Shown: positions 42,901 to 45,900 of the stretch, in pieces
Position numbering within the stretch: the first letter of the stretch is position 1
How the letters are laid out: every line of letters begins with the position of its first letter
Assembly (NCBI RefSeq): GCF_044324785.1
Contig: NZ_CP172127.1
Strand: one strand, 5' to 3'
DNA from: Escherichia coli
Lineage (GTDB): Bacteria > Pseudomonadota > Gammaproteobacteria > Enterobacterales > Enterobacteriaceae
Length of the DNA stretch: 64,000 bases
Position numbers: made by a program

Positions 42901-45900
42901 GGCGAAATGGTTGTCAAAGCCATAGTGACTCCTTACGGACAATAGACATTTTTCAGGGTGGCGATAATGGCATTTACCGCCTCATTTTTAATGGAATATA
43001 GAATGCGTTGGGCATCCCGTTGGCTGTCGATAAGCCCTTCGTCCCGCATACGAGCGAGATGCTGTGATGTTGCAGAGGCACTCAGTCCGGTAATGCGCGT
43101 CAGCTCTCCCGCGCTCGTGCCGGGGGAACCGCTAAGCATGCACAGAATCAGCAACCGTTTAGGGTGGCTCATTGCTTTCAATAAGGCCGCTGCCTGTTCG
43201 GCACTGGCCTGTAATTGCGCGAGTTCAGTCATAGTTATTTAAGTGTTTTCTAAATTAAGTAAACTCTAAACTAAAAATGCAACATATACCAGCATCAGCA
43301 GCGTAAATGAGAGTAAAAGCGTAAGCTGAAACTGGCAGGCTCCGCTAAAATTACTACGCTTAAGAGATAAAATCTCTTTTTAAACAATGAGTAATTTTCT
43401 TATAGGGAGTACATATGGGTTTCTGGAGAATCGTCATCACCATTATTCTGCCGCCGCTCGGCGTGCTGCTCGGTAAAGGGTTCGGTTGGGCGTTCATTAT
43501 TAATATTCTGCTTACACTGCTTGGCTATATCCCCGGTTTGATTCACGCGTTCTGGGTGCAAACCCGCGATTAAACTTGTCCTCACCCCCGCGGCGTTAAC
43601 GCGCCGCGTTCCTCTGCTACACTTTCTGAGTGTTTCCGTTAACGAATGAGGTAGCTATGGGTCTGTTCAATTTTGTGAAAGATGCCGGAGAAAAACTCTG
43701 GGACGCGGTTACAGGTCAGCACGATAAAGACGATCAGGCGAAGAAGGTGCAGGAGCATCTGAACAAAACCGGTATACCTGATGCCGATAAAGTGAACATT
43801 CAAATTGCCGACGGCAAAGCGACGGTCACTGGTGACGGCTTAAGTCAGGAGACAAAGGAGAAAATCCTTGTTGCGGTGGGGAATATTTCCGGTATTGCCA
43901 GTGTCGATGATCAGGTGAAAACGGCGACACCAGCCACTGCCAGCCAGTTTTATACCGTTAAGTCTGGCGACACTCTGAGTGCCATTTCCAAACAGGTCTA
44001 CGGTAACGCCAATCTGTACAATAAAATCTTCGAAGCGAATAAACCGATGCTAAAAAGCCCGGATAAAATTTACCCGGGGCAAGTGTTGCGTATTCCTGAA
44101 GAGTAGTTAATTGCCATCCATTGCCTGCTGGATAATGGGAATTGGCGTCAGTAAATGCTGGCGCATTAACTCACTGGCGCGCGCGGTATCTCGCGCCAGT
44201 ACCGCCGCAGTCAGGGTCTGGTGCTGATCGTGTTTATCCTCCAGCATCTCCACCGAAAGCACTGTTCGCCGCAGCCAGATAAATCGATAGCGCGCCGCCA
44301 GATCAAACAACCGTTCACGCATTTGCAGCAAATAGTGAGAACCACAGCCCGCCACAATTGCAGTATGAAACGCCTGATGACGCAGATCCCACTCATCAAG
44401 CATTTTCTCACTGGCGTCACAGGCCTCAAGTTTACTGAGCAGATGCGCTTTTGCGAGAACGTCTGCCTCCCACTCATCGCCACCGCGGGCAATCGCCAGA
44501 CTGACCAGCATCGCTTCCATATTGGCGCGGGCGTCGAAAATATCGAGCAGTTCCTGTTCTGACATAGACGCCACCCGATACCCTTTTTGATTCACCACCG
44601 TGACCAGTCGTTCTGCTACCAGTTGCGAAAGCGCTTCCCGCAACGGCCCAACGCCAAGTGCATAACGCGATGTCAGCAAACTCATCCGTAATTTTTCATC
44701 CGGTTGAAAATTACCGCGAATAATATCGTTCTTCAGCCAGCGATAGCCATCCAGAGACGTAATGGTCATGGTGTGACTCCTGATCATTATCAGCGCGTAT
44801 TATGAACGGGTGTTTTTTGCCACAATACCAGCTTTTTCCAGCGAGCCATAATTGGCACGGTACAGATAATCCCTATCGCTAATAAGCTAGTGGAGATCAC
44901 TTCTAACTGTTGCGCCGGGCGGAATAGCATCACTACCAACACAAAGGTTATAAAACCGATGACCAGCCAGGTGAGCCACGGATAAAGCCACATCCGCAGG
45001 CGAATTTCGCTTCCTTCTGCTCGCAGAATTTTGCGCATCCGCAATTGTGAAACGGCGATGACTAAATAAACCAGCAGGGCGATAGCGCCGGAGCTGTCGA
45101 TCAGAAATTTAAATACCTTCGCAGGCGCGTAATAGTTCACCACCACCGTTAAGAATGCCGCGCCGGTGGAGAGTAACACCGCCACATACGGGGTTTTACT
45201 GCGGTTGATTTTACCCATTACCGCGGGCGCATCACCGCGACGGCTTAAGGAGTAGAGCATCCTTGACGCGGTATACAGCGCCGAGTTCAGACAGCTGGTT
45301 ACGGAAAGTAATATCACGCAGTCCATGATTAATTTCGCATGGGGAATATTGAGCAATTCCAGAACCGAGCGATAAGATCCAACGGCTTTCAGCCCCGGCA
45401 TATTCCACGGTATTAATGCCACAACGACAAAAATAGAACACAAATAGAAAATAGAGATACGCCAGATAACCGAGTTGGTGGCGCGGACAATATGTTTTTC
45501 CGGCGTGTCGGATTCCGCGGCGGCAATGGTGACAATTTCTGCGCCCATAAACGAGAACATGGTGATCAACATCGCGCTTAATACCGCACCGAAGCCGTTG
45601 GGCATAAAGCCGCCGCTATCCCACAATCTTGAGATCCCGCTCACGTCGGCATAAGGGTAAAAACCGCTAATTGCGACTGCACCAAGGAAAATAAAGGCCA
45701 GAATAGCGATGACTTTGCACAGCGCCAGCCAGAACTCAAATTCGCCGTAGTTTTTAACGCTTAATAAATTACTGCCAGTTAAGGCGAGGGTAATGACGAG
45801 GGAAAATAACCAGATGGGAATGCCTGGAACCCACGAGTGCAGGATCATGGCGGCGATGTTGGCTTCCAGCGGGATAACCAGTACCCAAAACCACCAGTAC

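Follow-up and report, generated by a model that had tools for sequence, protein, structure and literature searches.

A 52-residue Pmp3/RCI2-family proteolipid gene, yqaE, below the size cut-off of an open reading frame track in a 64-kb Escherichia coli segment

The closest described relatives of the gene considered here are the Pmp3/RCI2/Lti6/UPF0057 proteins, among them yeast Pmp3 (Sna1) and Arabidopsis RCI2A/B. As reviewed (PMC7835403), both membrane potential and sensitivity to Na+ are modulated by Pmp3 in yeast, and the RCI2 proteins are stress-induced proteolipids with two transmembrane helices. The same review defines a no-tail type of about 50-60 amino acids (aa). Here we examine a bacterial member, yqaE, in a stretch of 64,000 nucleotides (nt) of Escherichia coli (RefSeq assembly GCF_044324785.1, contig NZ_CP172127.1; hereafter the window). 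An earlier note had reported this open reading frame (ORF) as missed by the ORF track of the window, which has a cut-off of 60 aa, and had suggested that other small ORFs may be hidden in two AT-rich spacers. We identify the feature, with a probability of roughly 97%, as the E. coli gene yqaE (b2666), which is monocistronic and encodes a 52-residue proteolipid of the Pmp3/RCI2 family. The gene is already known, annotated and named and has published regulators; nothing about it is new here.

Identity and conservation of the yqaE reading frame

The ORF runs from the ATG at 43415 to the TAA at 43571-43573 on the + strand (52 codons; Table 1), the limits that the earlier note had given, and its product is MGFWRIVITIILPPLGVLLGKGFGWAFIINILLTLLGYIPGLIHAFWVQTRD (52 aa). 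The Shine-Dalgarno (SD) sequence GGGAG, for which good spacing had been claimed, indeed lies 5 nt before the ATG and forms a duplex of -8.5 kcal/mol with the 3' end of 16S rRNA. Length alone is uninformative, as ORFs of 52 aa or more number 295 in the window (66 have 52-59 aa) and about 269 in its mononucleotide shuffles. That yqaE is real follows from its homology (PF01679) and from purifying selection, not from its length.

Against the Pfam family Pmp3 (PF01679) the product scored 69.3 bits (gathering score 22.9; E-value 2.7e-19), with residues 3-48 aligned to positions 2-47 of the 49 in the profile. All 52 residues are exactly those of YQAE_ECOLI, the exact sequence occurs on at least 1000 contigs, and the same gene is annotated in MG1655 as yqaE, b2666, 'Pmp3 family protein'. 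A homologue search with YqaE found 906 sequences, and all 120 among those listed carry PF01679; many homologues in other genera are mis-called with N-terminal extensions (71-83 aa). The length of YqaE and a polar C-terminus of just three residues (T-R-D) fit the no-tail type, and the protein has the same size class and number of transmembrane helices as Pmp3/RCI2/Lti6/UPF0057. Its helix 1 carries the I-I-L-P-P-L-G-V motif conserved in Pmp3/RCI2 proteolipids. The UPF0057 signature of PROSITE, which we take to be [LIVF]-x-[STAC]-[LIVF](3)-P-P-[FLIVA]-[GA]-[IV]-x(4)-[GKN], matches as a regular expression VITIILPPLGVLLGKG (residues 7-22).

Hydropathy peaks at residues 6-20 (2.46) and again at residues 25-39 (2.07), and it dips around K21-G22. 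The AlphaFold2 model, built from an alignment of 29 sequences, has a mean predicted local distance difference test score (pLDDT) of 90.2 and places helices at residues 3-21 and 25-51. The predicted topology is thus one of two transmembrane helices with a short loop, and the description of the product as a two-helix Pmp3-type proteolipid holds by family match, model and exact identity. The sole solved chain with detectable sequence similarity is the Ric1/PscF subunit in 7ueb_F/8gwa (58 aa; E-value 0.0013 over residues 3-47). These entries are presumably the photosynthetic reaction centre of Chloracidobacterium. Similarity to this chain, which belongs to a large membrane complex, is weak, and nothing suggests that YqaE is a subunit of a complex.

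For comparison we used a set of 80 loci centred on LhgD, with one genome per species. yqaE was intact in all 12 tested loci (Escherichia, Citrobacter and Salmonella), in which the substitutions were distributed over the codon positions as 51/5/209, that is, 209 of 265 at third positions, and synonymous exceeded non-synonymous changes by 202 to 26. In a six-frame test, 15 of 16 non-Escherichia loci had the yqaE frame at 91% identity over 55 aa, and the remaining frames of the same DNA reached 47-72%. By these substitution patterns yqaE is under strong purifying selection. The same data bear on the antisense ORF of 61 aa (43400-43585, - strand), of which the yqaE ORF might be a mere shadow. This antisense ORF is the longer one and would show on a track with a 60-aa cut-off; its frame, however, is only 47% identical across genera on the very DNA where that of yqaE is 91% identical, it starts with GTG, it is annotated in none of the records examined, and the third-position substitution bias is phased to the frame on the + strand. 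We therefore hold it to be next to impossible that the antisense ORF is the real gene.

Of 5426 complete E. coli genomes, 5418 contain the 2.6 kb around yqaE, with identities of 95-99%. The order csiR-(kbp)-yqaE-ygaV-ygaP-stpA-alaE is kept in Escherichia (E. albertii and the cryptic clades included), Salmonella and most Citrobacter, and YqaE is 90-100% identical across the loci with that order. In the window the gene order around yqaE is that of MG1655 and of strain VCSW5. The YqaE sequence is identical to that of K-12 (b2666) and has the same neighbours kbp, csiR/glaR, ygaV, ygaP and stpA, and the yqaE DNA is 98.7% identical to that of VCSW5. Two deviations were seen among the compared loci. 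In E. albertii and several Citrobacter (loci L029, L013, L015, L020, L021 and L043) kbp is absent between csiR and yqaE and yqaE is kept, and in the C. koseri representative (L023) yqaE and ygaV were not detected and kbp is partial.

Expression signals and the proposed role of YqaE

Upstream of yqaE lies the only perfect GTAAA-N5-GTAAA, or CpxR box, in the 64 kb; the chance expectation is 0.14, and at least one perfect box occurred in 13 of 100 shuffles of 64 kb. The half-sites are invariant in Escherichia, Citrobacter and Salmonella and the 5-nt spacer between them varies. Only 3 of 182 positions upstream of yqaE differ from K-12, none of them within the CpxR box or the SD. In published work yqaE depends on CpxR, and both a Reg-seq footprint and an annotated CpxR site are given for it. 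For the yqaE side of the H-NS-bound yqaE/ygaV spacer, Shimada 2014 (PMC3946193) lists the hexamers that we located by reading as TTAAGA-17-AACAAT; their assignment as the yqaE promoter is tentative. The segment 43362-43399 is highly conserved across genera. With the alternative -10 element TAAAAT at 43346-43351, the CpxR box would fall nearer -48.

At the level of the transcript, papers report that a fragment with the yqaE ribosome-binding site (RBS) was bound to Hfq and that this RBS is a target of the small RNA (sRNA) CyaR. When K-12 CyaR was paired by RNAduplex with positions -70 to +30 of yqaE, the optimum of -29.3 kcal/mol lay at 43385-43427 and covered the SD and the start codon. Downstream of the stop codon, a hairpin at 43589-43608 has an 8-bp GC stem and a folding energy of -15.3 kcal/mol (z = -3.7; none of 200 shuffles as good). 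The Term-seq data for K-12 (Adams 2021, supplement) place a 'primary' 3' end of yqaE at 2796831 (-), 39 nt beyond the stop codon; this end maps to about 43612 of the window and coincides with the hairpin. From this coincidence it follows that yqaE is largely monocistronic, with which the absence of kbp beside it in E. albertii and several Citrobacter fits. A terminator scan did not flag the yqaE hairpin because it has no U-tract.

YqaE would insert into the inner membrane as a helical hairpin of residues about 3-21 and 25-51 with a Gly-Phe-Gly turn between them. As described in the literature, envelope stress leads to activation of yqaE transcription by CpxR, and the cyclic AMP-CRP-dependent CyaR pairs at the RBS and represses both translation and mRNA stability. 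By analogy with yeast Pmp3 and plant RCI2, the protein would modulate membrane potential and the homeostasis of monovalent cations, acting probably through the bilayer or through partner transporters and not as an enzyme. According to Kwok 2020, as cited in PMC7835403, deletion of yqaE renders E. coli sensitive to NaCl at low as well as at high concentrations, and a dinoflagellate homologue complements the deletion; a salt-related deletion phenotype and cross-kingdom complementation are thus reported features that yqaE has in common with Pmp3/RCI2. Unlike those systems the control of yqaE is bacterial (CpxR, CyaR), and the eukaryotic roles in endocytosis and trafficking cannot apply. At 200 mM KCl, as reviewed (PMC7835403), yqaE expression drops whereas yeast PMP3 rises.

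A small, hydrophobic product that is repressed at its RBS by an Hfq-dependent sRNA, and that was up-regulated together with Cpx genes upon expression of the toxin TisB, as papers report, also recalls the type I toxins, in which case YqaE would be a depolarising membrane peptide held in check by CyaR and not a homeostatic modulator of the Pmp3 type. Yet CyaR is encoded in trans, has many targets and is not a cognate antisense antitoxin, and deletion of yqaE was published to have no significant effect on survival of TisB expression. Moreover, the family spans yeast, plants and dinoflagellates and acts as a stress-tolerance factor, the salt phenotype comes, in the cited account, from deletion and not from presence of the gene, and a eukaryotic homologue is reported there to complement the deletion. 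We judge a toxin-like role very improbable and retain the Pmp3-type homeostatic role proposed above.

No observation contradicts the identification, but the account given above has four weaker points. The biochemical function of YqaE is argued solely by analogy, which is a weak point. Another is that the promoter and transcription start site of yqaE are not pinned, as there are two candidate -10 elements and a stricter consensus scan called no promoter upstream of the gene. The CyaR duplex is marginal relative to mononucleotide shuffles (-21.3 +/- 4.2), a fraction of 0.047 of which were as good. Finally, a Foldseek search of the YqaE model against the PDB gave no match with an E-value of 0.001 or below and returned generic helical hairpins only, as is to be expected for a bare helical hairpin.

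Short reading frames in the intergenic DNA

The window has 8.6 kb of intergenic DNA in 40 regions, which contain 299 ORFs of 10-100 aa. These were displayed if they had an ATG with an anti-SD duplex of -6.0 kcal/mol or stronger, or any start codon with one of -7.5 kcal/mol or stronger. Seven of the 299 passed and none combined ATG, strong SD and conservation, hence small-ORF prediction with RBS scoring over all intergenic regions, as proposed in the earlier note, returned no additional gene of this kind. Of the coding sequences that the curated MG1655 annotation places in the matching 64 kb, yqaE alone is shorter than 60 aa (csrA has 61 aa). The statement that a gene of less than 60 aa exists in the window and is missed at the cut-off of the track is therefore right for yqaE. 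As to the spacers at 41.3-41.9 and 54.1-55.5 kb, their AT-richness was recovered (GC content 0.29-0.38), and the hidden small ORFs, in the sense of ORFs with SD and conservation, were not.

Two frames elsewhere in the window were considered and rejected. A 39-aa ORF upstream of ypjA (57707-57826, + strand), which PGAP annotates in other strains as hypothetical or 'ATPase' (at least 1000 contigs), has ATT instead of ATG here and no Pfam match; it is probably a gene remnant. A 32-aa ORF with a TTG start (22728-22826) has a strong SD-like GGGAGGA, which on reading the sequence seems to be an arm of an inverted repeat. This repeat, GGGAGGAT / ATCCTCCC, was read by eye at 22700-22830 downstream of the tRNA operon and appears more likely to form an RNA hairpin than to belong to a gene.

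Further unannotated small protein genes in the alaE/stpA spacer (41281-41947) and the ygaQ/ileY/ypjCB spacer (54120-55504) could be expected from the many short ORFs that both contain. Among these are a hydrophobic 48-aa ORF with a weak SD (54171-54317, +), a 41-aa ORF that has an SD-like sequence (-6.5 kcal/mol) and is intact in 6 of 6 sequences (54865-54990, +), and a 32-aa ORF with an SD-like sequence of -7.0 kcal/mol (41661-41759, +); some gene callers list the 41-aa sequence itself, or a version extended to 109 aa, as a hypothetical protein. On the other side, MG1655 annotates nothing in the matching curated region of either spacer except a tRNA (ileY), and no ORF joins an SD, intactness in relatives and a coding substitution pattern. 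The evidence from each spacer, given below, leads us to regard such genes as unlikely, with only a slight chance left to them.

The alaE-stpA spacer has 21 ORFs of 15 aa or more. Each of them is disrupted in at least one of the 9 Escherichia sequences, their codon-position patterns are flat, and synonymous changes stay far below non-synonymous ones. The RefSeq annotations of 30 genomes, spread over a total of about 5400, show nothing in this spacer. The GC content at 41.2-42.1 kb is 0.37-0.38. Identity over the spacer is 95% within E. coli, falls to 69% against E. albertii and the cryptic clades, and drops to about 50% against Citrobacter and Salmonella, at which level it can essentially not be aligned; the flanking proteins are at 75-99%. 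It is also unusually polymorphic, most E. coli being 90-99% identical to the window here with near-identical flanking genes. Two islands are conserved across genera, one on the alaE side (41361-41470) with AT-blocks such as AAAATTTTTATTT and TTTTTGT(A/C)GATAAAAT, the other directly upstream of stpA (41861-41947). The AT-blocks are conserved equally in all frames, and both islands look like regulator or promoter sites. A 25-aa ORF in the first island (41384-41461, - strand) was rejected, having no SD and losing its ATG in Citrobacter.

The ygaQ/ileY/ypjCB spacer has a GC content of 0.29-0.35 at 54.1-54.7 kb and of 0.38 and then 0.30 at 55.0-55.6 kb. It is confined to Escherichia; 2866 of 5426 E. 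coli genomes cover at least 80% of it, and E. albertii has it in part. In the same kind of RefSeq sample (30 of about 5400 genomes) a tRNA-Ile is its sole annotation. None of its ORFs has a coding substitution pattern. Three overlapping open frames at 54865-54998 have flat codon-position patterns (3/6/6, 6/6/2 and 5/2/2), which points to conservation of the DNA as such. The call of 109 aa extends across the tRNA gene, and the 48-aa ORF is broken in E. albertii.

The unannotated block at about 54865-55010 downstream of ileY, which 3100 of 5426 E. coli genomes carry as a single copy, was also considered as a source of RNA. A sigma-70-like promoter and an intrinsic-terminator hairpin (Table 1) outline a minus-strand RNA of about 77 nt (about 54941-55017), whose transcribed part hardly varies in E. 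coli and E. albertii. This RNA folds only moderately better than its shuffles do (z = -2.3), conservation of the -10 element breaks down in some E. coli and in E. albertii, and K-12 Term-seq (Adams 2021) lists no 3' end at 27854xx-27855xx, the region of this candidate. A permissive Rfam search of both spacers and the yqaE region gave only the tRNA, a mirror hit on it and a chance rli43 match. No phage match suggesting an att remnant was found at the block. With fold, -10 element, Term-seq and Rfam all weak or empty, the sRNA was left unsupported. That the ileY spacer encodes an H-NS-silenced minus-strand sRNA at about 54865-55010, or that the E. coli-specific hydrophobic 48-aa ORF next to ygaQ is a young translated protein, is an outside chance. 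The data examined show no sign of coding or of expression for either. In E. albertii (L029, positions 4862-5128 and 5125-5265) the block that flanks ileY is accompanied by paralogues of the ribosomal proteins L31 (88 aa) and L36 (46 aa), like ykgM/ykgO. The L36 paralogue is a real gene of less than 60 aa in the homologous neighbourhood and is absent from the window.

In genomic SELEX (systematic evolution of ligands by exponential enrichment; Shimada 2014, PMC3946193) the ileY/ygaQ, ypjC/ileY, yqaE/ygaV and stpA/alaE spacers were H-NS-bound and had RpoD promoters. The two spacers examined contain the divergent alaE/stpA promoters, those of ygaQ/ileY/ypjCB and a variable region linked to the tRNA; the divergent promoters, the variable region and the binding of H-NS account for their AT-richness. 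On comparative grounds, the spacers are regulatory or variable DNA and not hiding places of conserved small genes. Two limits weaken this conclusion: the test of the ileY spacer was low-powered because the spacer exists only in Escherichia, and comparative tests are blind to young, lineage-specific translated ORFs in either spacer.

Gene content of the window and consequences for annotation

The window is the reverse complement of about 2.777-2.841 Mb of K-12 MG1655. Gene-by-gene mapping on the MG1655 and VCSW5 annotations gave the order ascF ... recA, alaS, csrA, tRNAs, gshA, micA, luxS, emrAB, proVWX, nrdHIEF, ygaM, ygaC, alaE, stpA, ygaP, ygaV, yqaE, kbp, csiR/glaR, gabPTD, lhgD, glaH, ygaQ, ileY, ypjCB, ypjA, ssrA, smpB. 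The genes of the window are in general about 96-100% identical to their K-12 counterparts. Other features are given with those of yqaE in Table 1.

Table 1. Coordinates, in the window, of yqaE, its signals and other features
Feature	Position	Strand	Remarks
yqaE coding sequence	43415..43573	+	52 aa, Pmp3/UPF0057 family, two predicted transmembrane helices
Shine-Dalgarno GGGAG of yqaE	43405..43409	+	5-nt spacer to ATG
CpxR box GTAAA-TGAGA-GTAAA	43303..43317	+	upstream of yqaE
Candidate sigma-70 promoter TTAAGA-17-AACAAT of yqaE	43360..43388	+	hexamers from Shimada 2014, located by reading
Terminator hairpin CGCGGCGU-UAAC-GCGCCGCG and yqaE transcript 3' end	43589..43612	+	fold and Term-seq
Antisense ORF, 61 aa, GTG start	43400-43585	-	overlaps yqaE, spurious
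alaE	40831-41280	-	annotation mapping
stpA	41948-42352	+	annotation mapping
ygaQ	51867-54119	-	750 aa, alpha-amylase family
ypjCB	55505-56959	+	484 aa, DUF5507+DUF5508; ypjC and ypjB separate in K-12
ygaY	30943-32127	-	394-aa MFS transporter
naRNA4/CssrE	32232-32309	-	Rfam above gathering score, between ygaY and proX
MicA	25563-25634	-	Rfam above gathering score, between gshA and luxS
Sigma-70-like promoter TTAACC-16-TATAAT (10/12)	55051-55024	-	before candidate minus-strand RNA
Intrinsic-terminator hairpin + TTTTTT	54968-54947	-	about 55 nt after the sigma-70-like promoter

Several differences from the reference strains were noted. The three genes ygaQ, ypjCB and ygaY, each of them broken or split in K-12, are intact in the window. 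The tRNA cluster at 22340-22649 consists of serV and two tRNA-Arg genes, as compared to four (argV, Y, Z, Q) in K-12, and the gabP-gabT spacer (46191-46500) is 310 nt long versus 237 nt in K-12. VCSW5 has two extra genes between nrdH and ygaM (a member of the carboxymuconolactone decarboxylase family and pdxR), which are absent both in the window (39723-39968) and in K-12. In Pseudocitrobacter (L005, L008) the glaH-lhgD-gabDTP proteins are 96-100% identical to those encoded at 44790-51531 of the window, csiR is just 87-88% identical, and no kbp, yqaE or ygaV follows as neighbours. This suggests a recent horizontal transfer of the glutarate/gamma-aminobutyrate operon.

The negative result for the spacers is of use in that it stops further effort on both. 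With regard to the quality of the annotation pipeline, a cut-off of 60 aa hides yqaE, a real, conserved and regulated gene of the Pmp3/RCI2 family, and shows a spurious antisense ORF of 61 aa in its place.

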